This document shows, in pieces, positions 4,245 to 30,533 of a DNA stretch of 64,000 bases. This DNA comes from a phage. The notes beneath the pieces were generated by a model, which saw only the letters and a list, made by a program, of their open reading frames with translations, did no database searches and had not been told where the DNA came from. Both the position numbers and the translations under genes were made by a program. The stretch is taken from the sequence record PZ000613.1. One strand, given 5' to 3'. Position 1 is the stretch's first letter, and every line of letters begins with the position of its first letter.

Positions 4245-4273
4245 TTGACACCAGAAAAAGCCTGATATATAGT
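4245..4273 (+). promoter_or_regulatory. Sigma70-like promoter (TTGACA-17-TATAGT)
   Basis: Consensus -35, 17-nt spacer, same -10 variant as promoter at 2292; A-tract upstream. Confidence 0.55.
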
Positions 4274-4691: not shown

Positions 4692-4720
4692 TTGACAGCT
4701 AAAACAACATGATTCATAAT
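4692..4720 (+). promoter_or_regulatory. Sigma70-like promoter (TTGACA-17-CATAAT)
   Basis: Consensus -35, 17-nt spacer, A-tract upstream. Confidence 0.55.
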
Positions 4721-5640
4721 GAGCACACTTAAGCAAATCACCGCTTAAGGAAAGCGTAACAACGGCTAACGGTTGCATAGTGTGAGAAAGCACACTGATA
4801 GATTTACCGCTCTTTAATAATTTAAACATTCTCCTATATCGGTTGAATATGTTAGATGATAATAACCATCGGATAACATACCAGATAAAACGGTGTAAGA
4901 CTCTCTAAACTATCAGAGAAAAACAGCCTTACAATCCCTTACTGGAAACGTCACCACTGATAAACGGATTCATTGAGTGCACGCAAAGACTTAAGCTAAT
5001 CGCCCACGGTTAAGGGTAGCGGCGGTCATCGCTAACAAGGCGCTACAGTGAAAGAAGTTAATCAGGGTAGGCAAGCCCGAAGAAATAACGCTCAATTGAG
5101 AGCGGCGGGGAGTGGTTAAAAAGTGGCAAATTGCTATTTAACAATGAGGTTTAGTGTGAACGTTTATGATGTGAACGGCTTGAGATTCATCTTATGATGA
5201 AAGTACATAGTCGGTTTATGTAGTAAACTTGCCGAAAGATATAAAACGTCGGAACATTAGACGGTCAATGACTCTTTCGCAATAGTATCCCGTAGTGGGC
5301 GATGACTGGCGATTGAGAGTTGATATAAAAGGATAGGCGAGAGCGAAAGCAAAGTAAACGATATTGCCGACGGTTACAATAACGTAACTAATTAGAGTCG
5401 GACGCACTGCCTTATTGTGATGATTGATCATCGCTATCAGGTCGGCTTCGTTTATAGCGGCTAATTAAAGATACCAGATGAAACATCACGGATAAGGGGG
5501 CGGCAAGGTTAACTCCTGATAAGACCGCCCCGCTTACCTATAACTACTTACAATGAGTGGTTATAGTTAAGTTAATAGTGACTTAAACAAGCTCATAGAG
5601 AGCGGGGCAATAGCGCCCTTACAATTGAAAGGTGAATATT

Positions 5641-7977: not shown

Positions 7978-8003
7978 GCCCCGGCTACGGCTGGGGCTTT
8001 TTT
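7978..8003 (+). terminator. Rho-independent terminator
   Basis: GCCCCGGC-tacg-GCTGGGGC hairpin plus TTTTTT. Confidence 0.65.
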
Positions 8004-8052: not shown

Positions 8053-8442
8053 ATGTTGACATTGACTATTTATTATGAGGCAGGGAATCAGCCAACCGCA
8101 TGTAAGGCTTTAGTTGCGGATACCGTAATAAATAGAATGGCACAACGAAAACTGACCGCTGAACAGGTGATAAGACAAAAGAACCAGTTTGAGTGGATTC
8201 CGGTACTATTAAAACAGGAGAAACCTTATAAACGTTATGTAAAGCTGATTCGTGATAAAAATCCGATGACTGAGCAAGCCATTGGAGAAAGCGAGCGACT
8301 TGCTAAACGTGCCCTTAAGAAGAATTATGTTCCTCTGTATAGTGGGACTTACTTTCAGAGTAAGAGCGAAGGGGTGCCAAAATGGTATGCCAATCCTATG
8401 TATTGTGGTGATTTAGTGTTCGATAATAGCTCTAGGGAATAA
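8053..8442 (+). CDS. SleB/CwlJ-like cell-wall hydrolase (Hydrolase_2-like)
   Basis: Motifs TIYYEAGNQ...ALVADTVINR...QFEW and C-terminal YFQSK...WYANP resemble the SleB/CwlJ family; ATG start. Confidence 0.6.
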   Translation: MLTLTIYYEAGNQPTACKALVADTVINRMAQRKLTAEQVIRQKNQFEWIPVLLKQEKPYKRYVKLIRDKNPMTEQAIGESERLAKRALKKNYVPLYSGTYFQSKSEGVPKWYANPMYCGDLVFDNSSRE

Positions 8443-8640
8443 TCACTAGTGCCAGATTTGACAAACTAAATTCCTTTATAAACCAACCACTTAGTAAATT
8501 TATTGAAAAAGATGGTAGTATTCTGGGACTATGGGTAATGCTCTGTATATAGACCCTTTGAAAATTTCTTAGAAAATAAGTTTACTAAATATAACTTACT
8601 TAAATAATATTACTTTTAATCTCTGATAAAGGTGAATAAT

Positions 8641-8937
8641 ATGACTTTAGAAGTATATAAATTCCTTTTTGTAAGCTGTTTAACTATCAGCGTTATAGGG
8701 TTTATTGTTCTCAGAAACAAAGCAGCAAGCTGGGAGAGAATGTATAAATCTCTAGTCCGAGTGGATGAGATGTATAATGAGAAAGTTAAAGTAACACTCA
8801 ACGATCTTATTATGCAAGTTGAAGACAGAAACAAACGTCTTCAGAACCTCAACCACGAGGTGTTACGCCTTGCTCGTGCTAATGAAGACTTGCGAGTGGC
8901 TATTGCTAAGCAGCAGGAGATTAACAGTGAAAGTTAA
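8641..8937 (+). CDS. Membrane-anchored coiled-coil protein
   Basis: N-terminal TM segment then heptad-rich region; SD AAAGGTGA 8 nt before ATG. Confidence 0.55.
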   Translation: MTLEVYKFLFVSCLTISVIGFIVLRNKAASWERMYKSLVRVDEMYNEKVKVTLNDLIMQVEDRNKRLQNLNHEVLRLARANEDLRVAIAKQQEINSES

Positions 8938-9163
8938 TATTAAATCCGATCGTACAATGCTTCGCTTAAACAACATGAAGCCGGGCGTTCTATTTGAGCG
9001 TAAAGATTCCCTTTACATTAGAACCGACACCCTGTACGCAGATAATTATGTCAACTGTGTTGATGTGGTAACTGGAAAGCTCATGCCTTTTAAACGGGAT
9101 GAAGTCTGCCAAGTACGTAACGATCTCCACATAACCAACATAGAGGCTAAAGATGAAGATTGA
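8927..9163 (+). CDS. Early small-protein paralog family A member (GTG start)
   Basis: SD AGGAGA 6 nt before GTG; shares LxLxxMKPGxxF...Y(I/M)R motif with the other family members. Confidence 0.55.
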   Translation: MKVNIKSDRTMLRLNNMKPGVLFERKDSLYIRTDTLYADNYVNCVDVVTGKLMPFKRDEVCQVRNDLHITNIEAKDED

Positions 9164-9404
9164 TCTTGAGTTGAAGAGTCCGGAGCTAAAAGTGGGTGAT
9201 TTGAAACTTGGAGATGTATTCCAAGTGAAGGCAACATGTATTGACCATTACATGATTGTTCAGCTATACACACCACATGTATCAGAGACTGATCTTCGGG
9301 ATGGTTGTGTGGTTCTTAGTTTACGTACTAATCAAGTGATGAAGCTAGACCCAAACTTACCTGTTTCAGTTATCCATGATGTAGTAATTACTAATCGGAA
9401 GTGA
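9153..9404 (+). CDS. Early small-protein paralog family A member
   Basis: KVGDLKLGDVFQV...YMIVQ motif; coupled to upstream gene. Confidence 0.6.
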   Translation: MKIDLELKSPELKVGDLKLGDVFQVKATCIDHYMIVQLYTPHVSETDLRDGCVVLSLRTNQVMKLDPNLPVSVIHDVVITNRK

Positions 9405-9712
9405 GTATGTCTGTTTCTTCTTTTGTAATATGCAAACCAACCGTAATAATTCGTGCTCAAATGAAACACTGTTCTGGTGTCACATATCTAGAGTTCGATC
9501 ATAGTGATAGCCGATATAATCCCGGATTTACAGTGGCGATTAAATCTCCGTGGTTTAATATGACATTGTTGCCGGAAGAAGTAGAGTCAGCGTGTCGTGG
9601 CATCAAGACGGGGAGTTTGAGTCTTCTGTCCTCTAACTTAGGGGACGAGTTTATGCCTTTGATTCAGAAAGGTGTGGCTAACGTTCGTAAGATGAAGGAA
9701 GCGGTTAAGTAA
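9401..9712 (+). CDS. Hypothetical protein (103 aa)
   Basis: ORF overlapping upstream stop; co-oriented. Confidence 0.55.
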   Translation: MSMSVSSFVICKPTVIIRAQMKHCSGVTYLEFDHSDSRYNPGFTVAIKSPWFNMTLLPEEVESACRGIKTGSLSLLSSNLGDEFMPLIQKGVANVRKMKEAVK

Positions 9713-9721
9713 CACCGACTT

Positions 9722-9749
9722 ATAGCCCTTGTGTCTATCAGAGGGCTAT
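9722..9749 (+). promoter_or_regulatory. Conserved intergenic hairpin (ATAGCCCT...AGGGCTAT), copy 1 of 2
   Basis: 8-bp inverted repeat with 12-nt loop then GTGAG; near-identical copy at 15754-15781; no T-tract. Confidence 0.5.
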
Positions 9750-10070
9750 GTGAGGGTGTTCCTCATTAACTTATTAATTCAGGCATATGCCACACCGCTA
9801 GGGAGAGCTTGCTCGAACATCCGGTGTTAGACTAAAACCTGTTAATTTTCGAAAGACTTTCTGATATGTAGGGGTACATATTGGTTTGGGATTCAGGAGA
9901 CTTCCTAGGGGTAGGGAGTCTTCACCAGTTGGAATAAGAGATAGCTCTAGAACCTGAACTCTTAGGCAGAGAAGGTCGGCAATGAGTACGCGGTCAGGAT
10001 TAGTCTACTGACTAGGGCTATCCCTTATATCAACTGGCAATAATGCCTCCACTAACAAAGAGAGATAGGT

Positions 10071-10211
10071 ATGAAAGTATCAACCAAACGTATGAACCGC
10101 CCTGAACGTATGGATGCAGTAGCTAACGGTGCTCTGAAACTGGAAGGCTTCTGGATTCATGCAATGTCAGCTGTTCGTAACAAGCAAGGCAATTGGACCT
10201 ATGCCGGTTAA
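10071..10211 (+). CDS. Small hypothetical protein (46 aa)
   Basis: ATG after GA-rich SD-like sequence; stop overlaps next gene start. Confidence 0.3.
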   Translation: MKVSTKRMNRPERMDAVANGALKLEGFWIHAMSAVRNKQGNWTYAG

Positions 10212-10410
10212 AACAGTTCATGTAATAGGTATGCGAGAAATCATTCGCATTGCCTTGATGGAACACACTGAACGTAACATGCAACTAACTCAAATCTCTA
10301 AGTGTCTTAATTGCTCAAGAGATGTGGCTAAGGAGTTGATGTTCGCATTCCTGTATAATGCAGAAGACGGGACGCTACAGAATCATCTGATTCGTGGTGT
10401 GAGTCAATAA
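10201..10410 (+). CDS. Hypothetical protein (69 aa)
   Basis: Internal ATG of track ORF 10159-10410; overlaps stop of upstream small ORF. Confidence 0.5.
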   Translation: MPVKTVHVIGMREIIRIALMEHTERNMQLTQISKCLNCSRDVAKELMFAFLYNAEDGTLQNHLIRGVSQ

Positions 10411-10414
10411 AGAG

Positions 10415-10444
10415 AGGCTGCCTTCGGGCGGCCTTTGTTGTTTT
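10415..10444 (+). terminator. Rho-independent terminator
   Basis: AGGCTGCC-ttcg-GGCGGCCT hairpin plus TTTGTTGTTTT. Confidence 0.7.
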
Positions 10445-10488
10445 AACTAAGGGACAACTCTTACTTAAACTAACAAGAGGAAGCTAAA

Positions 10489-10665
10489 ATGTCTAAGCAA
10501 ACAATCAAACATACGCAAGCTGGTTACTCTTATGTCAACTCTCCTTGCTGTGGTGCTCGTGTTAATCTGGTTAAGGAAGAGGTTCGTATCGTTCAGCGTG
10601 GAGCTACTGTTGTTCGTTCATGCTGTGTCTGTGGTAATGATATTTTCATTAAAGGTAAAGTATGA
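10489..10665 (+). CDS. Small Cys-rich zinc-ribbon-like protein (58 aa)
   Basis: SD GAGGAAG; paired cysteines PCCG...CCVCG; stop overlaps next ATG. Confidence 0.5.
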   Translation: MSKQTIKHTQAGYSYVNSPCCGARVNLVKEEVRIVQRGATVVRSCCVCGNDIFIKGKV

Positions 10666-10889
10666 ATATTGTTTTAGATTCAACTAAACCAAATCAAAAG
10701 ACTTTCCGAGATTTGAGTGTGGGTTCTGTTTTCTCACTTGATGATTGCCCTTGTGATAGAAAGAAATTCTACATGAAGATTGGGGGAGGTTTTTCTGTAA
10801 ATCTATCACACCCTGCTCATAAACTCTCATTCGCTGGTCAAGTACCAGTTACAGAATATAAAGCAACTCTTAAGTTAGAGGAAATGTAA
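10662..10889 (+). CDS. Early small-protein paralog family A member
   Basis: RDLSVGSVFSL...FYMKIG motif. Confidence 0.6.
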   Translation: MNIVLDSTKPNQKTFRDLSVGSVFSLDDCPCDRKKFYMKIGGGFSVNLSHPAHKLSFAGQVPVTEYKATLKLEEM

Positions 10890-11140
10890 TGAAAAACTTC
10901 CAAGCTGCACCAATAACTAAAGTGATTGAAGTTGACGGTGTAATGATGACTGTTCCTCTGAACACTCGTTACATTGCAATTGACAAGATGGGTTATGTAT
11001 GGGCTTGGAAGATTAAGCCTAGCTATAACGCATTATTTGATGAGTTTGTTTGTACTGGTACGTACAGTCCTACATTCTTAGGTTTGTTTGGAGAGTTTGA
11101 CGGTCAGTATAAAATCATCACTCTCCCTGCTTGTGCTTGA
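10889..11140 (+). CDS. Hypothetical protein (83 aa)
   Basis: ATG overlapping upstream stop. Confidence 0.55.
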   Translation: MKNFQAAPITKVIEVDGVMMTVPLNTRYIAIDKMGYVWAWKIKPSYNALFDEFVCTGTYSPTFLGLFGEFDGQYKIITLPACA

Positions 11141-11147
11141 GGTTAAT

Positions 11148-11324
11148 GTGAGAGTAAAGCAAATCCATAAAGACTACTGGAGAGTCGCTGATAGTGAAAA
11201 CCAAAGGCTTGCAGGAATCTCTCTTATAGGTCAATGGTTTGTTGTAACTTCTGCCGCAGGTCAGTATGTTGGACGGTTTCGTTCCCTAAATGAAGCTATA
11301 TCCTTTTCTATCAAAGGTTCTTGA
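11148..11324 (+). CDS. Hypothetical protein (GTG start, 58 aa)
   Basis: GAGG SD 7 nt before in-frame GTG; track start 11088 would overlap upstream gene. Confidence 0.4.
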   Translation: MRVKQIHKDYWRVADSENQRLAGISLIGQWFVVTSAAGQYVGRFRSLNEAISFSIKGS

Positions 11325-11325
11325 T

Positions 11326-11490
11326 ATGATCAAGTGGTTTAAACGTTTCTTCCATCTCCATGATTGGGAGACAATAAAAGAAATTCGTTTACACATATAC
11401 AATGAGATCGGTCAAATAGAAGACACAGGTACTCGTTATATACTTCGATGTAAAACATGTGGTCATATCACCAAGCGAGATATGATCTAA
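11326..11490 (+). CDS. Small hypothetical protein (54 aa)
   Basis: Internal ATG immediately after upstream stop; C-terminal CKTCGH. Confidence 0.45.
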   Translation: MIKWFKRFFHLHDWETIKEIRLHIYNEIGQIEDTGTRYILRCKTCGHITKRDMI

Positions 11491-11498
11491 ATAATTCT

Positions 11499-11574
11499 GC
11501 GCTCTTAGCTCAATGGATAGAGCAGTAGCCTTCTAAGCTATTGGTTACAGGTTCGAGTCCTGTAGGGCGCACCA
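11499..11574 (+). tRNA. tRNA-Arg (anticodon TCT), CCA encoded
   Basis: Cloverleaf: acceptor GCGCTCT/AGGGCGC, D-arm AGCTCAATGGATAGAGC, anticodon loop CTTCTAA, T-arm GGTTCGAGTCC, discriminator A plus CCA. Confidence 0.85.
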
Positions 11575-11580
11575 CATTTA

Positions 11581-11695
11581 GGGCTAGTATGGGTGCGGCA
11601 CCAGAGTTAGTGTATCCCTGTTGAGGCAAGTGCTTTTATAACAGTGGGAATTACTTTCTTAGTGAGCTTCTGGTTCGATTCCAGATAGTCCACCA
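11581..11695 (+). other. tRNA-like element of atypical length (115 nt)
   Basis: Canonical T-arm TCTGG-TTCGATT-CCAGA, 6-bp acceptor-like pairing 11581-86 with 11686-91, discriminator plus CCA; interior 82 nt has no clean D/anticodon arms. Confidence 0.3.
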
Positions 11696-11714
11696 AATCA
11701 AATAGGAGGTAGTT

Positions 11715-11996
11715 ATGAGTTGGGGTGGTGTAATATCCTTAATCTGTATCTTCCTTGTCTGCATAGCCCTTACAGGCTGCGTACAGAGCCGTCCTGATGG
11801 ATGGTGTGCAGTAGCAGTGGAAGGTATTTGTGTTTCTCGCTGGCACCAAGGCGAGAAGGTTCCTTCTGGTGAAATTGATATGCGTTACAGTGGTATCTCA
11901 TGTCTTAACGGTGCAGCAGTAGATGAGGAGACTAAAACCTTATCCAATGCTCAATGGTGTGGCGGTTCTGTAACAACAACCGGTAAGGAGTGGTAA
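11715..11996 (+). CDS. Predicted lipoprotein, Cys-rich (93 aa)
   Basis: Signal peptide ending in lipobox LTGC; SD AGGAGG 7 nt upstream. Confidence 0.65.
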   Translation: MSWGGVISLICIFLVCIALTGCVQSRPDGWCAVAVEGICVSRWHQGEKVPSGEIDMRYSGISCLNGAAVDEETKTLSNAQWCGGSVTTTGKEW

Positions 11997-11997
11997 T

Positions 11998-12246
11998 ATG
12001 ACAGCTCATTATTGGAATACAAAGAAGCTTCTTGAAGAGATGGCTGGAGGTAGTAGGGTACAGTTAATCTCTATGCTTCGAATGGATGCTCGCTCCTTAC
12101 GCTTCCAAGTAAAGATTGGTAACTTCAGTGACGGCCTTTATTACACGCTGAAGGAAAGGATTAAGAAGACTCACTTCATCATGTACGGAATCAAACCGAG
12201 AACGTACGTTAACTACATGTATTGGAATACATGCTACGATAATTGA
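11998..12246 (+). CDS. Hypothetical protein (82 aa)
   Basis: ATG overlapping upstream stop. Confidence 0.55.
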   Translation: MTAHYWNTKKLLEEMAGGSRVQLISMLRMDARSLRFQVKIGNFSDGLYYTLKERIKKTHFIMYGIKPRTYVNYMYWNTCYDN

Positions 12247-12253
12247 GGTTATT

Positions 12254-12475
12254 ATGAAACTAGACTCTAAGCAGTCACTTAAAACCGTTGAGCTGTCCAC
12301 TCTGCCAAACGGAAGTATTTTTGGTCATGATAAACACTTCTGGATTAAAACAGACATCATAAACGATGGATATATCACCTGTGTCAATCTTTGGAACGGC
12401 TCAGTGGATGGCTATCGCCCTAGCGCAAAGGTGGTGCCTCAGCCTGATGCAAAGGCTACAGGTTTGGTTTACTAA
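12254..12475 (+). CDS. Early small-protein paralog family A member
   Basis: VELSTLPNGSIFG...FWIKTD motif. Confidence 0.6.
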   Translation: MKLDSKQSLKTVELSTLPNGSIFGHDKHFWIKTDIINDGYITCVNLWNGSVDGYRPSAKVVPQPDAKATGLVY

Positions 12476-12489
12476 GGAGTTCAGTATAA

Positions 12490-12624
12490 ATGAAACTCAA
12501 ACGAATGCTTTTTCGAAATGGAATGTACACTCTCCGAGAATCCCCTAAAGGGGACACTACAAAGTGGAGTGTAGGGGATTGGATTTCATTCATAGATGAG
12601 AAGGGCAGCTGGATTCTCGAGTAA
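12490..12624 (+). CDS. Small hypothetical protein (44 aa)
   Basis: ATG ORF with AAGGAG 12 nt upstream; below track size cut-off. Confidence 0.3.
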   Translation: MKLKRMLFRNGMYTLRESPKGDTTKWSVGDWISFIDEKGSWILE

Positions 12625-12635
12625 CAGGAGCCTGT

Positions 12636-12809
12636 ATGAGTTGTTTTGGTGGCGGTGAAGTGGATGACGATGATGATATGGAATCTAACGGTACATGTCC
12701 TGATTGTGGATGTGAGACGTGGGATGGCGTGTCAGTGTATCCTGCCTGTAGTTACTCACCAGTGATCTGTAAAACATGTGGAGATCAACCTTGTGACCAG
12801 TCTTGTTAG
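12636..12809 (+). CDS. Small Cys-rich acidic protein (57 aa)
   Basis: SD CAGGAG 5 nt before ATG; 10 cysteines in CPDCGC...CKTCG...PCDQSC. Confidence 0.5.
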   Translation: MSCFGGGEVDDDDDMESNGTCPDCGCETWDGVSVYPACSYSPVICKTCGDQPCDQSC

Positions 12810-12810
12810 T

Positions 12811-13035
12811 GTGTTAATAGCCTATTTAATAGGGTCAGTAGTATCAGGTGTTCTAATTAAGATCATAGATGTTAAAGGTAATCAGTGTTTCAGAGGTTGG
12901 GATGGTGAACCAGATCTCGGAAAGATAGCAGCTATGGTTTTCTTATGGCCTATTATTGCTGTACTGTTTATAGCACTTGTAGCATGGGCTGCCCTTTGGG
13001 ATTTCATCCTTCCTAACAAAAAGTATGAGGACTAA
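12811..13035 (+). CDS. Small membrane protein, LWPI-motif paralog 1 (GTG start)
   Basis: Two hydrophobic segments; shares EPD...M...LWPI motif with 13178-13435. Confidence 0.5.
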   Translation: MLIAYLIGSVVSGVLIKIIDVKGNQCFRGWDGEPDLGKIAAMVFLWPIIAVLFIALVAWAALWDFILPNKKYED

Positions 13036-13166
13036 TGACTGAAGAATTTTTAAAGTGGTTTGGTGATACCTTCAAAGAGTATCTATTCTCTCCAGAAGAC
13101 TTTGAAGAACTGAAAACCTACACTTGGTTGGCTTGGAGAGATAGCCGACGAAAGTTGAACAAGTAA
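13035..13166 (+). CDS. Small hypothetical protein (43 aa)
   Basis: taATG overlap, SD GAGGA. Confidence 0.4.
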   Translation: MTEEFLKWFGDTFKEYLFSPEDFEELKTYTWLAWRDSRRKLNK

Positions 13167-13177
13167 GAGACGATTAA

Positions 13178-13435
13178 ATGGGTTTACTTGATATTTTTAT
13201 CTCAGTTTACTTTATTGGAGTATTCCTTTCTGTTTTAGTGCTGAAACTACTATACAAGAAAGGTCTACTAAAAGGGGTCATTACAACAGGGTCTACCAGC
13301 TCTGAACCTGATGAGATGATGGTTGTGATCTTAATTGTGTTATGGCCCATCTCAATACTGGCAGGAGTCTGTTATCCGATAGGTTGGCTTCTGTCTAAAG
13401 CATATGATGCAGTTATACGTTTTATATTTAAGTAA
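13178..13435 (+). CDS. Small membrane protein, LWPI-motif paralog 2
   Basis: ATG ORF 85 aa with two TM segments, paralogous to 12811-13035. Confidence 0.6.
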   Translation: MGLLDIFISVYFIGVFLSVLVLKLLYKKGLLKGVITTGSTSSEPDEMMVVILIVLWPISILAGVCYPIGWLLSKAYDAVIRFIFK

Positions 13436-13646
13436 TATCGTGAAGGATTCTTACGAGAGTCCTTTGAGATAGGACTTCAGATCTCCTATCAAACTAACAT
13501 TCATGTAACTAGCCCATAAGGGCGTTACCCTTTAATAACCCAGCCCACTAAGGGGGCGGGAGTTTAGTGCTGGATTGGCTTTACGCTTATTCCTACAAAG
13601 GCAACCGATTGTTAGATCTTACATGCAATATTAACTAATAGGGTAA

Positions 13647-13677
13647 GGGAGGATTCGTCCCCTCCCCCTATTTTATT
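13647..13677 (+). terminator. Probable Rho-independent terminator
   Basis: GGGAGG...CCTCCC stem followed by CTATTTTATT. Confidence 0.5.
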
Positions 13678-13725
13678 GAATCTTTATCTAAGCAAGTCTT
13701 ATATAAATGTTTAATTGGAGGATGT

Positions 13726-14037
13726 ATGAAAGCACGAAGAACTATATGGACTCCTATGCAGATTGAAAACCTTCGGAGACTAATCAAAGAGTACTCGGTT
13801 CAAGAAGTTGCTCAGATTATGAATGTAACGGAGAATGCTGTTAACACAGCTTGCACTAAATTCGGAATATCAAGAGCTTCAATCCGAGTTAAATGGTCTG
13901 AAGAAGAAGACCAGTTCCTTATCCGTAATGCTGGGTTCATGTCTATTCAGAGAATGGCTGACATGCTCGGTAGAAGTTATGCTGCTGTACAGAACAGGGC
14001 ATGTATGCACCTTAACATTAGCCTCAAACTTAAATAG
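13726..14037 (+). CDS. Putative DNA-binding protein with two Myb/SANT-like HTH repeats
   Basis: Two W-x(17-20)-helix repeats (WTPMQIENLRRL...; WSEEEDQFLIRN...); SD GGAGG. Confidence 0.55.
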   Translation: MKARRTIWTPMQIENLRRLIKEYSVQEVAQIMNVTENAVNTACTKFGISRASIRVKWSEEEDQFLIRNAGFMSIQRMADMLGRSYAAVQNRACMHLNISLKLK

Positions 14038-14045
14038 GAATCGAT

Positions 14046-14300
14046 ATGAAAGTTAACGAGTTGAACAAAACCATCAAGACTGTGAAACTCCACACTCTAA
14101 AGAATGGTGACACATTCCGTAAAGAGGAGAACGGCCCAATCCACATGGTGTGTACTGCGTCGTCTACCAATTGGGTGGAAGTTGCACGAGATCGAATTGT
14201 GTGCGTAAGACTGGAAGATGGCAGTCTGAGTGGTCCGGTTGACGGCATCTCTGTCATACCGGTCAAAGTTGAAGCTAACGTTATTAAGGGTTCTAAATGA
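14046..14300 (+). CDS. Early small-protein paralog family A member
   Basis: VKLHTLKNGDTFR...HMV...VIPV motif. Confidence 0.65.
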   Translation: MKVNELNKTIKTVKLHTLKNGDTFRKEENGPIHMVCTASSTNWVEVARDRIVCVRLEDGSLSGPVDGISVIPVKVEANVIKGSK

Positions 14301-14536
14301 AGATTACAAAGAGAGTGGATCGTGTCCCACTTGAGTCCTTAGAAAACGGGGCCGTGTTTAAGCATCCAGACAGTGACACACTCTATGTTAAAGGTTTTGT
14401 TCACGGCACACCTAATGTGTCCGTAAATAATGGACGTACTCTATCTCTTCGTCTACATGACGGGCTTGTAACAGCACCTGATTCTACGTGCCAAGTTATC
14501 CCTGTGTCAGCTGAACTTTTAGTGAGTGATTGCTAA
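14297..14536 (+). CDS. Early small-protein paralog family A member
   Basis: VPLESLENGAVFK...LYVKG...VIPV motif; ATGA coupling. Confidence 0.65.
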   Translation: MKITKRVDRVPLESLENGAVFKHPDSDTLYVKGFVHGTPNVSVNNGRTLSLRLHDGLVTAPDSTCQVIPVSAELLVSDC

Positions 14537-14781
14537 TGAAAATCATCCCAAAGAAAAAGGATAATACGGTTCGATTGGAAACAATCATTCCCGGAAACCC
14601 TTTCGTGGTTCAGAACGGAAGTGCTTCTCCTCAGTATTATATGAGGGTTGAAAATGCTTCTGGTAATATCCGTATAGCTAGTGGTTGGATTCCTGTAGTG
14701 AATCTATTCACAGGTGTGCTGTGTGTTAAAGGTGCTGACGAACAGGTTGAAATGATTCGTATGTCAGTTGTTCAGGAGTAA
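14536..14781 (+). CDS. Early small-protein paralog family A member
   Basis: VRLETIIPGNPFV...YYMRV...IPV motif; taATG overlap. Confidence 0.6.
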   Translation: MKIIPKKKDNTVRLETIIPGNPFVVQNGSASPQYYMRVENASGNIRIASGWIPVVNLFTGVLCVKGADEQVEMIRMSVVQE

Positions 14782-14783
14782 TC

Positions 14784-15044
14784 ATGAGCACTATTCATAT
14801 TAAAGTTAAGAGCAAAGAGGAAACAGTCCTCCGTGTTAAAGATCTAAATATGTCAGATGTGTTCACTCTCCAAGAGTGCCATCTTCAAAAGACTTACATG
14901 CTGACAGCCAAGAGTAGGGGCAGTCAACCTGCTGGAGCTGTTAACCTAGGCACTGGAGAACTACGTGTCATCTCTGGTGATATGGTTGTTGGTGAGAAGT
15001 TTAGTAAAGCTGAAATTATCTTAACTCCACAGGAAAACAAATGA
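14784..15044 (+). CDS. Early small-protein paralog family A member
   Basis: LRVKDLNMSDVFT...YMLT motif. Confidence 0.65.
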   Translation: MSTIHIKVKSKEETVLRVKDLNMSDVFTLQECHLQKTYMLTAKSRGSQPAGAVNLGTGELRVISGDMVVGEKFSKAEIILTPQENK

Positions 15045-15157
15045 GACGTAAAGCATATTCTTATGACGATATGATTAACCAGAAAGGTTTTGGTCAACGA
15101 CAGCCTGATGGTTCAATTATCTGGTTTGTAAACGGACAGAAAAAGGTAACTAAATAA
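15041..15157 (+). CDS. Small hypothetical protein (38 aa)
   Basis: ATG overlapping upstream TGA; below track size cut-off. Confidence 0.3.
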   Translation: MRRKAYSYDDMINQKGFGQRQPDGSIIWFVNGQKKVTK

Positions 15158-15263
15158 GCCCTCTTCTCTCCTCCTTTTAGTACTATGACGCCTCTTTTTA
15201 GACGGCCCAATTTGCGTAGGGAATTCCCTCTACGCAGCCATGACTTTTTAAGGAATTTCCCCT

Positions 15264-15497
15264 ATGTCTAAAGTAAGCGCAATCGATGCAATCCGTCAAC
15301 CGTTCCAGTTCCAATCCAAATCAACCCAAACCTTCAGTGAACCTAAGCAAATTCGCTTGGGCGGCACGGAGAAAACTGTGTTCGATCTGGCTAAAAACAA
15401 GAGCGTTACCGTAGTTGATGGTGGCACTCTGGTTAACGTTTCCCATCGCATCCGCACTGGCAAAACTGCCAAAGATCGTGCTAAGAAAGGTCTGTAA
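15264..15497 (+). CDS. Hypothetical protein (77 aa)
   Basis: ATG ORF with GGAA SD-like sequence. Confidence 0.55.
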   Translation: MSKVSAIDAIRQPFQFQSKSTQTFSEPKQIRLGGTEKTVFDLAKNKSVTVVDGGTLVNVSHRIRTGKTAKDRAKKGL

Positions 15498-15748
15498 TGC
15501 AAATTTCCAATAAAACACCTCCTGAGCCTACTGTTCAAGTAAAAGATATGACACCGGGAGATGTGTTTCGTTCGGTTGAATATCCGGGGGAATTCTTTAT
15601 CCGAATCCCTTCTGCCTCTGTTGATGGTGTCACTAAGCCGGTAACAGCAGTTCAGTTGAGCACAGGTCATCTCTTCCGTTTAGAGCTTGACATGGCAGCT
15701 ATTCCTGTTCCGACAGCAATCCTCCGCTTCGACGGAGACACAGAGTAA
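15497..15748 (+). CDS. Early small-protein paralog family A member
   Basis: VQVKDMTPGDVFR...FFIRIP...IPV motif; taATG coupling. Confidence 0.6.
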   Translation: MQISNKTPPEPTVQVKDMTPGDVFRSVEYPGEFFIRIPSASVDGVTKPVTAVQLSTGHLFRLELDMAAIPVPTAILRFDGDTE

Positions 15749-15753
15749 CATCT

Positions 15754-15781
15754 ATAGCCCTCGTAAGTATCAGAGGGCTAT
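15754..15781 (+). promoter_or_regulatory. Conserved intergenic hairpin (ATAGCCCT...AGGGCTAT), copy 2 of 2
   Basis: Near-identical to 9722-9749; downstream GTGTTCCTCA and ACATCCG blocks also shared. Confidence 0.5.
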
Positions 15782-15982
15782 GTGAGCTATTCTGGCTCAA
15801 CTAACCTAATCTTAATATATTTCCCGTATGGGGCCGATGCTAGGGCGAGGAGTGTTCCTCAAACATCCGTCGGATAGATATTTTAAGAGCAGGTTATCCA
15901 CAGATATTGGGTAATATCTTTTTTTGGATTTAAAGCTTGGCTCTTTTCGGAGAGTCCTTTTTTAAATTCAACGAGAGGAAAT

Positions 15983-28646: not shown

Positions 28647-29987
28647 ATGATTGTTATCCCGATTAACCAAATTGAAGATAAGGTTGCTCAACAACCTGAT
28701 ATCACTGTTGGTCGTCACTTCATTGAACAGTTGATTAACAACAACTTGATTCCAGACGGTATCTGTCCCATCATTACTGGTGGGGCTATTCGTGATGCTG
28801 TCCTTAACAACACAGCTCCACATGACATTGATATCTTTATTGTCAGAGGACAAACACCAAGAACTCAAAATACTTTCGTACCAACTGAGCAGTGGCAAAT
28901 GCTTGGGAGAGAGATTGAAAGTAATGTGAAGGAATGGCTAGAGTCACAAGATATCGAATATGCATCCCTTCTTGCTGAAGCTACAAACGAATCCTATGCT
29001 GGGAGTTCTCAATTAACATTCACTGATATTATTGAGTTTCAGTGGGATGGGGCTCGTATCCAATTCATGTTTAATTATCCTACTTCTATTGAAGAGGTAT
29101 TGGATAATTTTCCTATGATGTGTCGTGGTGCGATGACTCTTGACAACTTATTCATGACTTCTCACGGATATTTGGCTATGACCGCCCCTTGTCCAGTGGT
29201 TGTTTCTAGTCGTGAAATCAGATATGTTCACAAGAAGTGGCCTAACTCTCAAGTGTTGAGATTTTCCTCTCCAGCAGCTGCACATCAATACATGGCCCAA
29301 ACTCGATATCTTCCCACACCTCAACCAGTTAATCATCTGGTCAACGAACGAGGTCAGGTTGCTCTTATTGAGGATACAACAAGTGCTCAGTATTGTGTTA
29401 ATCGTGACATGAGTCGATTCTTTGGAATCCCTTATGAAGAGATTCAGTTAATGTCAAGCACACATGGCTCTAGCCAGATTCATGCGTATTGGTCTGAAGG
29501 GTTGACAAATTTAACGACTAACACGGGTGGTGATCTGCTTGGTCGAGAAGACGAACCTAACCGACACAATGCAATTGAAGGGGTGTTTGTAGCCCCTACA
29601 ATGCGTCGAGCACAAGAGTCACGAAGAGAAAGCCCTACTCGTAGAACATCTTTTGAAGAAGCTCTTGGTATCACAAGTGATTCTATGGAGAGATGGATGT
29701 CTAGTCCTTCTCGTGGTCGTCCAAATGGCTTCAACGTTAGTCGTCACCAGTTCTCTGGTCAGGGTTTTGCTGTTGGTGATATCAACACCCCTTCTCGTGT
29801 TATCTGGACTGATGAAGCTTCTGCTCAAGATGCGGTAGGTAGTCTTGATGTTCTTTCTCATGAGGAACTTGCTGAGACCGTCAGTCGCAATCTTGCTGAT
29901 CGATTTGTTGCCAATAGCCCTGAAGTGTTAGAGCCTCAGGTTGGTGGGGAATTAGACCAGTTGTTAAATTCACAAAACATTCGTTAA
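28647..29987 (+). CDS. Pol-beta-superfamily nucleotidyltransferase with CCA-adding/poly(A) polymerase-like head domain
   Basis: ITGGAIRDAVL...HDIDIF matches class-II tRNA nucleotidyltransferase head motif GGAVRD...D.D; C-terminal about 250 aa unrecognised. Confidence 0.6.
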   Translation: MIVIPINQIEDKVAQQPDITVGRHFIEQLINNNLIPDGICPIITGGAIRDAVLNNTAPHDIDIFIVRGQTPRTQNTFVPTEQWQMLGREIESNVKEWLESQDIEYASLLAEATNESYAGSSQLTFTDIIEFQWDGARIQFMFNYPTSIEEVLDNFPMMCRGAMTLDNLFMTSHGYLAMTAPCPVVVSSREIRYVHKKWPNSQVLRFSSPAAAHQYMAQTRYLPTPQPVNHLVNERGQVALIEDTTSAQYCVNRDMSRFFGIPYEEIQLMSSTHGSSQIHAYWSEGLTNLTTNTGGDLLGREDEPNRHNAIEGVFVAPTMRRAQESRRESPTRRTSFEEALGITSDSMERWMSSPSRGRPNGFNVSRHQFSGQGFAVGDINTPSRVIWTDEASAQDAVGSLDVLSHEELAETVSRNLADRFVANSPEVLEPQVGGELDQLLNSQNIR

Positions 29988-29999
29988 TAAGGAAAAAGA

Positions 30000-30533
30000 A
30001 TGGGTTTACTAGGAAGTATTGAACTGCACGATGTAATTGATAATGGCTATCTGGATGCGGAGCATAAGTATGTTAACGCTGCTAGTGTGGATATCCGTAT
30101 TGGTGATACTATCCTTGTTGAAGAACAGGCTGATGGTATCGTTGATATTGATGCGAAAGAGAATCTTCAGTGGAAGGAAGTAAAGATCCCTGAAGAGGGT
30201 TTGGTTATCACTCCGGGTCAGTTCTTCTTGGCTCACTCTATGGAGGAGTTTAACCTTCCAGATAACATCTCAAGTCTGTTTGTTCTGCGTTCGTCTATGG
30301 CTCGTTGTGGTTTGAACCACCTTCACGCCGGTTGGGCAGATGCAGGATTTAATAGCAGTAAGCTGACATTTGAATTCCATAACGTAACCAAGCACCACAG
30401 CTTACGAGTTCGTGCTGGTATGCGTGTTGGTCAGATGGTCATGTTTGAGCACTCTCATGCAGGGGAACACTCCTATGCAGTGAAAGGTCGTTATAATAAC
30501 TCTGAAGGTGTAGTTGCATCTAAGGGTGTGTAA
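30000..30533 (+). CDS. dcd: dCTP deaminase (dUTPase superfamily)
   Basis: Collinear motifs VDIRIG, ITPGQFFLAHSME, LRSSMARCGL, HAGWADAGF versus E. coli Dcd. Confidence 0.8.
   Translation: MGLLGSIELHDVIDNGYLDAEHKYVNAASVDIRIGDTILVEEQADGIVDIDAKENLQWKEVKIPEEGLVITPGQFFLAHSMEEFNLPDNISSLFVLRSSMARCGLNHLHAGWADAGFNSSKLTFEFHNVTKHHSLRVRAGMRVGQMVMFEHSHAGEHSYAVKGRYNNSEGVVASKGV

Follow-up and report, generated by a model that had tools for sequence, protein, structure and literature searches.

The 64,000-nucleotide (nt) phage sequence PZ000613.1 (the whole stretch that was analysed, hereafter the window) carries between positions 8,927 and 15,748 nine small open reading frames (ORFs), which a sequence-only reading had assigned to a single paralogous family of early proteins. 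This raises the question of whether such short and dissimilar ORFs share a common origin and, if so, what a phage would do with nine of them. Tiny proteins abound in the early regions of virulent phages and grouping these into families is a first step to function. The nine proteins were found to belong, as one branch, to a very large superfamily of phage proteins with a predicted β-barrel fold that is expanded in one group of phages, and this structural and evolutionary description is near certain. The role in host interaction or anti-defence first proposed for them is plausible when the lines of analysis are taken together.

The region from 8.9 to 15.8 kb shares 91–94% nucleotide identity with Kuravirus coliphages (WFI101126, SU10, Paul, ShigP1 and others), the matches being patchy and covering 68–76% of the query. 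By sequence the window is thus that of a Kuravirus (phiEco32/SU10-like) coliphage, in the opposite orientation to the phiEco32 reference. The family genes lie in the arm of the genome that is homologous to phiEco32 genes 92-116 and SU10 coding sequences (CDS) 94-114. The phiEco32/SU10 arm has been classed as early and transcribed by host σ70 RNA polymerase and described as the most variable part of the genome, of unknown function (PMC4281155, PMC8948821, PMC9965538). The early-region placement made from the letters alone therefore agrees with synteny to the published early arm of phiEco32-like phages, and the early temporal class of the nine genes is inferred from this synteny together with three upstream matches to σ70 promoters (see below).

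The Nine ORFs Form One Family

All nine ORFs were located at the starts proposed for them, on the + strand and encoding proteins of 73–86 amino acids (aa). The first two, o8927 (8927–9163, 78 aa, GTG start, PHROG 16423), an ortholog of the phi32_115/KBNP1711 gp115 type, and o9153 (9153–9404, 83 aa, PHROG 9955), overlap by 11 nt. These are followed by o10662 (10662–10889, 75 aa, PHROG 10911), the weakest member of the family, and o12254 (12254–12475, 73 aa, PHROG 6570). A run of four tandem genes is headed by o14046 (14046–14300, 84 aa, PHROG 7832), which served as the modelled reference. Here the start of o14297 (14297–14536, 79 aa, PHROG 7832) overlaps the o14046 stop (ATGA), that of o14536 (14536–14781, 81 aa, PHROG 7431) has one base in common with the o14297 stop (TAATG) and o14784 (14784–15044, 86 aa, PHROG 12612) begins 2 nt past the o14536 stop. 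The last member, o15497 (15497–15748, 83 aa), is acidic with an isoelectric point (pI) of 4.8 and has its best PHROG match to 6570. The run of four directly tandem genes had been read correctly, but such close packing is not specific to the family since overlapping stops and starts are a general property of the early arm (8927/9153, 10489/10662/10889 and 15264/15497).

Pairwise BLAST comparisons among the nine are weak (13–30% identity) and only some pairs are significant individually, with o14046 and o14297 the sole mutual best in-genome matches (29% identity, E 7e-10). Leave-one-out hidden Markov models (HMMs) were therefore built, each trained on eight members and searched against every stop-to-stop ORF of 40 aa or longer that a six-frame reading of the window yields, 660 in total. 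In 9/9 tests the left-out member ranked directly below the eight training members, with E-values ranging from 6e-10 for o14046 through 1.9e-6 for o15497 and 9.6e-5 for o9153 to 0.012 for o10662, which was still the top non-training ORF; the best non-member ORFs in these searches gave E-values of 0.03–2. Profiles built by others lead to the same grouping, with PHROG profiles matching all nine at E 1e-9 to 8e-49 with cross-hits between them. The superfamily profile described below scores the nine at E 2.5e-9 to 1e-19, the nine having belonged to its training set. Neither the leave-one-out HMMs nor the superfamily profile found a tenth member in the window. The leave-one-out ranks and the PHROG cross-hits thus agree on one paralogous family, with shared motifs that are significant and a similarity far beyond chance.

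The three motifs originally named as common to the ORFs are real and are the most conserved columns in an alignment of 114 superfamily sequences. In o14046 numbering these are an N-terminal motif V13-x-L15-x-x-L18-x-x-G21-(D)-(V)-F24, a central motif Y33-M34-K35-T36 and a C-terminal motif V70-x-P72-V73. The set V-x-L-x-x-L-x-x-G-D-V-F / Y-M-K-T / V-N-L-x-x-G / V-x-P-V was found, with substitutions, in all nine.

A Shine-Dalgarno-like (SD) motif lies 6–8 nt 5′ of every family start (9/9), 8/8 orthologs checked keep the GTG start and SD motif of o8927 and the family genes are annotated in all relatives compared. Within ortholog groups at least 80% identical, the ratio of non-synonymous to synonymous substitution rates (dN/dS) was 0.04–0.21 for the family (0.068 for o8927, 0.15 for o9153, 0.088 for o12254 and 0.086 for o14536), which is indistinguishable from the 0.02–0.20 of eleven neighbouring non-family genes. 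In keeping with the low dN/dS, the SD motifs and the conserved GTG start, the nine ORFs are protein-coding and under purifying selection.

The shortness of the ORFs, their low pairwise identities and the finding that M1 and F24 are the only residues common to all nine are what might be expected were the family an artefact, arising either from chance motif sharing among short ORFs or from ORFs that are not genes. Such an artefact would not account for the leave-one-out ranks, the independent PHROG profiles, the SD motifs and the purifying selection, nor for more than 1,700 related clusters with end-to-end alignments and a consistent predicted fold (see below). It is excluded by these tests, its remaining probability being negligible.

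A Large Superfamily of Phage Proteins

A word-indexed homolog search reached kuravirus orthologs only, such that an exhaustive profile search was needed to reveal the superfamily. Searching 1.84 billion cluster representatives by HMMER with a 29-sequence profile identified an unnamed superfamily of 1,776 representatives (50%-identity clusters) at E<=1e-3, a number that is an upper estimate since some of the large matches are probably spurious. Among these, P0107 (988 aa with an NHL-repeat-like N-terminal sequence) and a few large repeat proteins look like spurious matches to a V-N-L-x-T-G hairpin. Nearly all of the best 150 matches are stand-alone proteins of 67–92 aa aligned from the first residue, with the superfamily consensus MKI...V.F..L..GDVF......YMKT......NAVNL.TG.L.......V.PV.AEL.I. 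Many two- and three-copy tandem fusions of the domain exist in metagenomes, while P0100, a cellular protein (478 aa, from a Tenacibaculum metagenome-assembled genome), has an N-terminal SprT-like metalloprotease domain followed by five tandem copies. The existence of these fusions and of the five-copy SprT-like protein indicates that the barrel domain is an autonomous module.

The superfamily profile recovered N4 gp21 (E 3.5e-18) and LUZ24 gp7 (E 1.2e-13) as members. A Foldseek search of BFVD placed N4 gp21 and PaP3 ORF65 among its top matches, together with uncharacterised proteins from phages of Erwinia, Proteus, Serratia, Klebsiella, Dickeya, Cronobacter and Vibrio, and tblastn with a hand-made consensus added more than 400 further phage records. 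N4 gp21, LUZ24 gp7 and PaP3 ORF65 are true homologs of the nine, with equal length and motifs and full-length alignment from Met1, differing in that each is single-copy in its own phage (with one additional weak ORF in LUZ24). They are small early or middle proteins of the genera Enquatrovirus and Bruynoghevirus. Close relatives of o15497 were also found on other metagenomic contigs (P0002 and others). On these profile matches the family is no ORFan expansion confined to this phage but one branch of a very large superfamily of phage proteins.

In existing databases the individual proteins are known as hypothetical proteins and fall into separate PHROGs. Matches were obtained for 105 of 114 superfamily representatives to about ten of these (7832, 6570, 8365, 7431, 16423, 9955, 12612, 10911, 34455 and 29867), the profiles of which cross-hit and are all labelled as of unknown function. 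Whereas the PHROGs database holds them as separate families that are neither unified nor named, the present analysis brings about ten such PHROGs, N4 gp21, LUZ24 gp7 and about 1,800 clusters from metagenomes together in a single SH3-like superfamily. When the nine proteins, N4 gp21 and the distant and fused members were scanned against Pfam, NCBIfam and PADLOC, no family emerged, the sole real match being the SprT-like domain of P0100. At E<=1 eight of the nine had no Pfam match and the ninth only a sub-threshold match to NQRA_SLBB. Likewise, PADLOC returned two fragments of ZorC at E~0.03 for o10662 and nothing for the other eight, placing none among defence components, and PDB sequences searched with the 114-sequence profile gave nothing at E<0.1. 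A literature search turned up nothing on N4 gp21 and, among papers on phiEco32, SU10 or Kuravirus, none that describes the family or its paralog expansion; no paper was found that notes the paralogy, the Kuravirus expansion or the link to N4 gp21 and LUZ24 gp7. Families of this kind, with several copies of a small early protein and turnover by cassettes, are as such familiar in virulent phages.

A Predicted SH3-Like Barrel

AlphaFold2 models of o14046 (predicted local distance difference test score, pLDDT, 80; predicted template modelling score, pTM, 0.66) and o10662 (pLDDT 82, pTM 0.70) are all-β with identical strand order, and both show the five to six β-strands in a small closed barrel that define the SH3-like fold class. 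Each protein is thus predicted to be a stand-alone SH3-like β-barrel resembling those of Tudor, KOW and EF-P domain I. The best Foldseek matches in the PDB were eIF5A, EF-P domain I and ribosomal protein L2, with no match at E<=1e-3, indicating that the resemblance is one of common fold rather than of any specific family. In keeping with this, the SH3-like barrels compared (EF-P/eIF5A, L2 C-terminal, Tudor/PWWP/chromo, KOW, FeoA and DtxR C-terminal domains) have no detectable sequence relationship to the family. The lysine loop of EF-P/eIF5A domain I, the KOW Gly-Lys motif and the aromatic cage of Tudor/PWWP domains are all absent. Membership of the EFP_N, eIF-5a, KOW, TUDOR and PWWP families was rejected on Pfam profiles and functional motifs, as was identity with the VapX-type antitoxins, which are small SH3-like proteins encoded beside the VapD toxin.

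In the 114-sequence alignment F24 is conserved in 100% of sequences, G21 in 98%, G59 in 96%, V70 in 94%, L56 in 89% and V54 in 88%, these together with M1 being the only columns above 85%. V13, L18, Y33, M34, P72 and V73 are partly conserved and are likewise core or turn residues. The conserved positions therefore comprise the hydrophobic core and turn glycines, while the β3-β4 loop can be as short as about 1 residue or as long as 23 and surface positions are free to differ. No conserved polar residues of catalytic type were present in the alignment. With the core conserved, residues of catalytic type absent and the loops and surface variable, the pattern is the signature of a non-enzymatic scaffold the surface of which is free to vary.

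The predicted fold bears directly on whether the proteins might be regulators associated with RNA, ribosomes or RNA polymerase, retuning host or phage expression early in infection with paralogs specialised for different sites. The structural matches are of the appropriate kind, including EF-P/eIF5A domain I, the L2 C-terminal domain, the Spt5 KOW domain, the C-terminal Tudor domain of UvrD (which binds RNA polymerase) and CarD. The isoelectric points of the nine range from 4.8 to 9.1 with five mildly basic (pI 7.9–9.1), and the early-arm genes adjoin a D5-like transcriptional regulator at 13726–14037. Set against this, the proteins lack any KOW, EFP_N or Tudor match in Pfam, the conserved positions form the core with no conserved basic or aromatic surface residues, the superfamily is acidic to neutral (median pI 5.4 with only 8% of members above pI 8) and LUZ24 gp7 has no effect on growth (see below). 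A regulatory role of this type is judged unlikely.

Expansion in phiEco32-Like Phages

When whole early arms were scanned with the superfamily profile, one copy was found in N4 and in a 33-kb metagenomic phage contig, one copy and one weak ORF in LUZ24, one to two copies in two Vibrio phages and two adjacent copies in the Serratia phage MyoSmar. There were four copies in both SU7 (Suseptimavirus) and Salmonella phage 7-11, while the eight other kuraviruses compared have 8–11 copies each, always in the early arm. The large expansion noted at first is an unusual one on the comparison of 8–11 copies in kuraviruses with one to two in unrelated phages and four in SU7 and 7-11, which places the expansion of the superfamily, as judged from profile matches, specifically in the phiEco32-like podoviruses. 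The additional LUZ24 ORF is an unannotated stop-to-stop ORF of 76 codons at 5100–5330 between gp13 and gp14, which matches profile positions 23–62 weakly (E 6e-4).

Recent tandem duplication as the origin of the nine was rejected as no two paralogs exceed 30% identity, and nothing among them points to a burst of recent copying. For eight of the nine a relative from outside the kuraviruses scores better than any within the genome, a comparison that is biased by the larger outside set.

In phiEco32 and other kuraviruses, LUZ24, SU7 and 7-11, family members lie just 5′ of a module of COOH.NH2-ligase, amidoligase, glutamine amidotransferase (GFAT) and RimK-like genes. This synteny suggests a common ancestral layout of the early arm that is absent from N4.

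Exchange of Whole-Gene Cassettes Among Kuraviruses

The window was compared with eight other kuraviruses using 20 neighbouring non-family genes as a control. Mean aa identity to the window was 76% for the family against 93% for the neighbours, with 24/58 family comparisons falling below 80% compared with 12/129 for the neighbours (Fisher p=1e-6). The family identities are bimodal, being either about 90–97% or about 55–67%. The slots are syntenic whereas their contents differ, some being empty or cut down and other phages carrying members that are missing from the window.

Megablast breakpoints coincide with gene boundaries. Around o10662 homology ends at 10666–10673 and returns at 10879–10889 in 8/8 phages, o10662 being a cassette allele missing from the eight kuraviruses, in which the slot is filled by a 27%-identical relative. 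Likewise, homology ends at 15490–15504 and returns at 15742–15773 around o15497 in 8/8 phages, making o15497 a cassette present in the window only among the nine genomes compared. The o14297 slot is absent in SU10 and ev_rybdy3, in which homology ends at 14304 and returns at 14535, truncated in WFI101126 and 59–95% identical elsewhere. In o14784 the break falls inside the gene at 14800–14845, with homology returning at 14988–15031, and the alleles are bimodal (84–90% in four phages and 55–57% in four others). Orthologs of o12254 are 96–99% identical in six phages and 44–55% in Ptacy1479 and MN05, while those of o8927, o9153 and o14536 are 67–97%, 55–89% and 69–94% identical respectively.

The diversification claimed in the sequence-only reading thus holds in so far as turnover exceeds that of neighbouring genes; taken to mean positive selection it does not, given the dN/dS of 0.04–0.21 within allele groups. 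The diversity comes from deep, old alleles that are exchanged as cassettes, and the nine copies are ancient paralogs under purifying selection and subject to whole-gene cassette exchange.

This turnover also bears on whether the proteins serve the biology of the phage itself or competition between phages, as adaptors or chaperones for replication or transcription complexes or as superinfection-exclusion factors. Such roles would be in keeping with the retention of just one copy by virulent phages of very different kinds, the location of N4 gp21 amid genes of the middle and replication region, a member on a JGI contig that adjoins DNA polymerase and nuclease genes, the position 5′ of the ligase/RimK module in LUZ24, 7-11, SU7 and kuraviruses and the purifying selection on the family genes. 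However, presence/absence and swaps between 55% and 95% alleles in phages that are otherwise 91–97% identical would not be expected of a core function, and no slot is universally conserved, with o10662 and o15497 having no ortholog in the eight relatives. The probability of a role in the phage's own biology is accordingly put low.

Proposed Function

It is proposed that the proteins would act as non-enzymatic binding modules made early in infection, with each paralog binding, and thereby blocking or redirecting, a different cellular macromolecule. The targets would more likely be components of host defence or dispensable host factors than essential machinery. Related phages would swap slot alleles by recombination at the conserved gene junctions, tuning the repertoire to the host strains that are met. 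Early timing, an architecture like that of binders, exchange of cassettes at the level of strains, multiple copies and a non-toxic tested homolog together argue for this mechanism, and that each paralog binds a different non-essential target, likely a defence component or accessory host factor, is given somewhat better than an even chance.

The tested homolog is LUZ24 Gp7, the only one with an experimental datum. It was among 13 early proteins expressed in Pseudomonas aeruginosa and was not one of the four growth inhibitors gp4, gp6, gp9 and gp11 (PMC4635203 text, Table S2). This bears on whether the nine proteins might be toxins for host shutoff, that is small early inhibitors of essential host machinery like LUZ24 gp4/6/9/11 or T7 gp0.4/gp2. 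Small size and early location would suit such a role and inhibitors are common among early phage ORFans (PMC4635203), but expression of Gp7 impaired neither growth nor biofilm formation of P. aeruginosa PAO1, and conserved essential targets would hardly be expected of nine paralogs whose surfaces vary so freely. Host shutoff is thus considered very unlikely.

Several observations weigh against the proposal that the paralogs bind distinct non-essential host targets. The best fold matches are RNA- and ribosome-binding SH3-like domains, which would fit a nucleic-acid-binding alternative, and none of the PDB fold matches resembles a known anti-defence protein. The alignment used to model o10662 included other family members and so gives no independent confirmation of the fold. 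Positive selection was sought within allele groups and none was seen, dN/dS being no higher than in the neighbours. Turnover alone does not single out the family because non-family slots in the arm also turn over: w9401 (9401–9712) occurs in WFI101126 and Ptacy1479 only, w12490 (12490–12624) and w13178 (13178–13435) in MN05 only, and w11290 (11290–11490) shows identities of 45–98%. Mosaicism in the early arm thus extends beyond the family, with cassette behaviour enriched in the family and not exclusive to it. No family members were detected in the SU10 proteome, for which the preparation was virion-enriched (PMC4281155).

Variable accessory or anti-defence islands occur in the early regions of virulent phages, as in anti-CRISPR loci and the accessory regions of T-even phages. 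Gene amplification of anti-defence loci has also been described (PMC13096335). The family is like such islands in consisting of small early proteins, non-toxic in the one homolog tested, that are present or absent as cassettes between near-identical phages. It is unlike them in that the nine copies are ancient paralogs, not recent amplifications, with no homology or fold match to a characterised anti-defence protein; no similarity to known defence or anti-defence proteins was detected in the Pfam, PADLOC, PDB sequence or fold searches. The Gordonclarkvirinae have been reported to be highly resistant to nearly all defence systems tested with no known inhibitors (PMC11990801), which offers circumstantial support for an anti-defence role. 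Among the systems tested, Fun/Z alone restricts Kuravirus. The stronger proposal that the family is a recombinationally shuffled library of SH3-like binders, each neutralising a different bacterial immune protein and together explaining the resistance of the Gordonclarkvirinae, is regarded as rather unlikely. Were it true, the superfamily of about 1,800 clusters, N4 gp21 and LUZ24 gp7 included, would be among the largest unrecognised families of anti-defence proteins.

The expansion of the superfamily in Kuravirus to 8–11 exchangeable cassettes offers a compact set of candidates for experiment, comprising in the window nine genes of about 240 bp each, in a phage group that is available on Escherichia coli K-12 via the BASEL collection. 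If the proteins are defence inhibitors or binders of host factors, the conserved scaffold with variable loops would make a useful natural binder platform; if not, the grouping would still tidy up the annotation of a phage domain that is very common.

Putative Promoters and Terminators and Neighbouring Genes of the Early Arm

Three σ70-type promoter matches (2292–2319, 4245–4273 and 4692–4720), each with 11/12 consensus positions, lie upstream of the family on the + strand and are co-directional with it. σ70-dependent early promoters have been published at this end of phiEco32 and SU10 (PMC4281155), and the three predicted promoters probably correspond to these strong early promoters and would have the same function here. 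No convincing internal σ70 promoters were found in the intergenic gaps of the early arm. Terminator-like hairpins on the + strand at 7978–7997, 10413–10436, 13647–13666 and 15939–15956 split the arm into units with two, two and five family members, the hairpin at 10413 being the counterpart of an annotated terminator in WFI101126. A tRNA-Arg(TCT) gene (11499–11574) that is conserved in relatives lies inside the arm between family-containing units.

The most conserved gene of the arm, ORF 15264–15497 (77 aa), is 99–100% identical at the aa level in 8/8 kuraviruses and lies directly 5′ of the most variable slot, that of o15497, with which it overlaps by 1 nt. Its product may be a hypothetical early protein of high conservation that was described previously (PMC9965538). 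At the start of a unit, ORF 8053–8442 (129 aa) is 97–99% conserved and carries in phage Paul the annotation of a cell wall hydrolase (PF07486), which is an unexpected function in this part of the genome. ORF 8632–8937 is the counterpart of phi32_116 (phiEco32 29722–30018, 98–101 aa), is coiled-coil-like and is labelled as a DNA helicase in phiEco32, SU10 and ev_rybdy3, which is probably a propagated mis-annotation as the ORF is far too small. Finally, ORFs 12778–13035 and 13178–13435 each encode 85-aa hydrophobic proteins resembling membrane proteins, with a common EPD...LWPI motif and a weak blastp match over 18 residues (E 0.002), and on this similarity may be a second small paralog pair.

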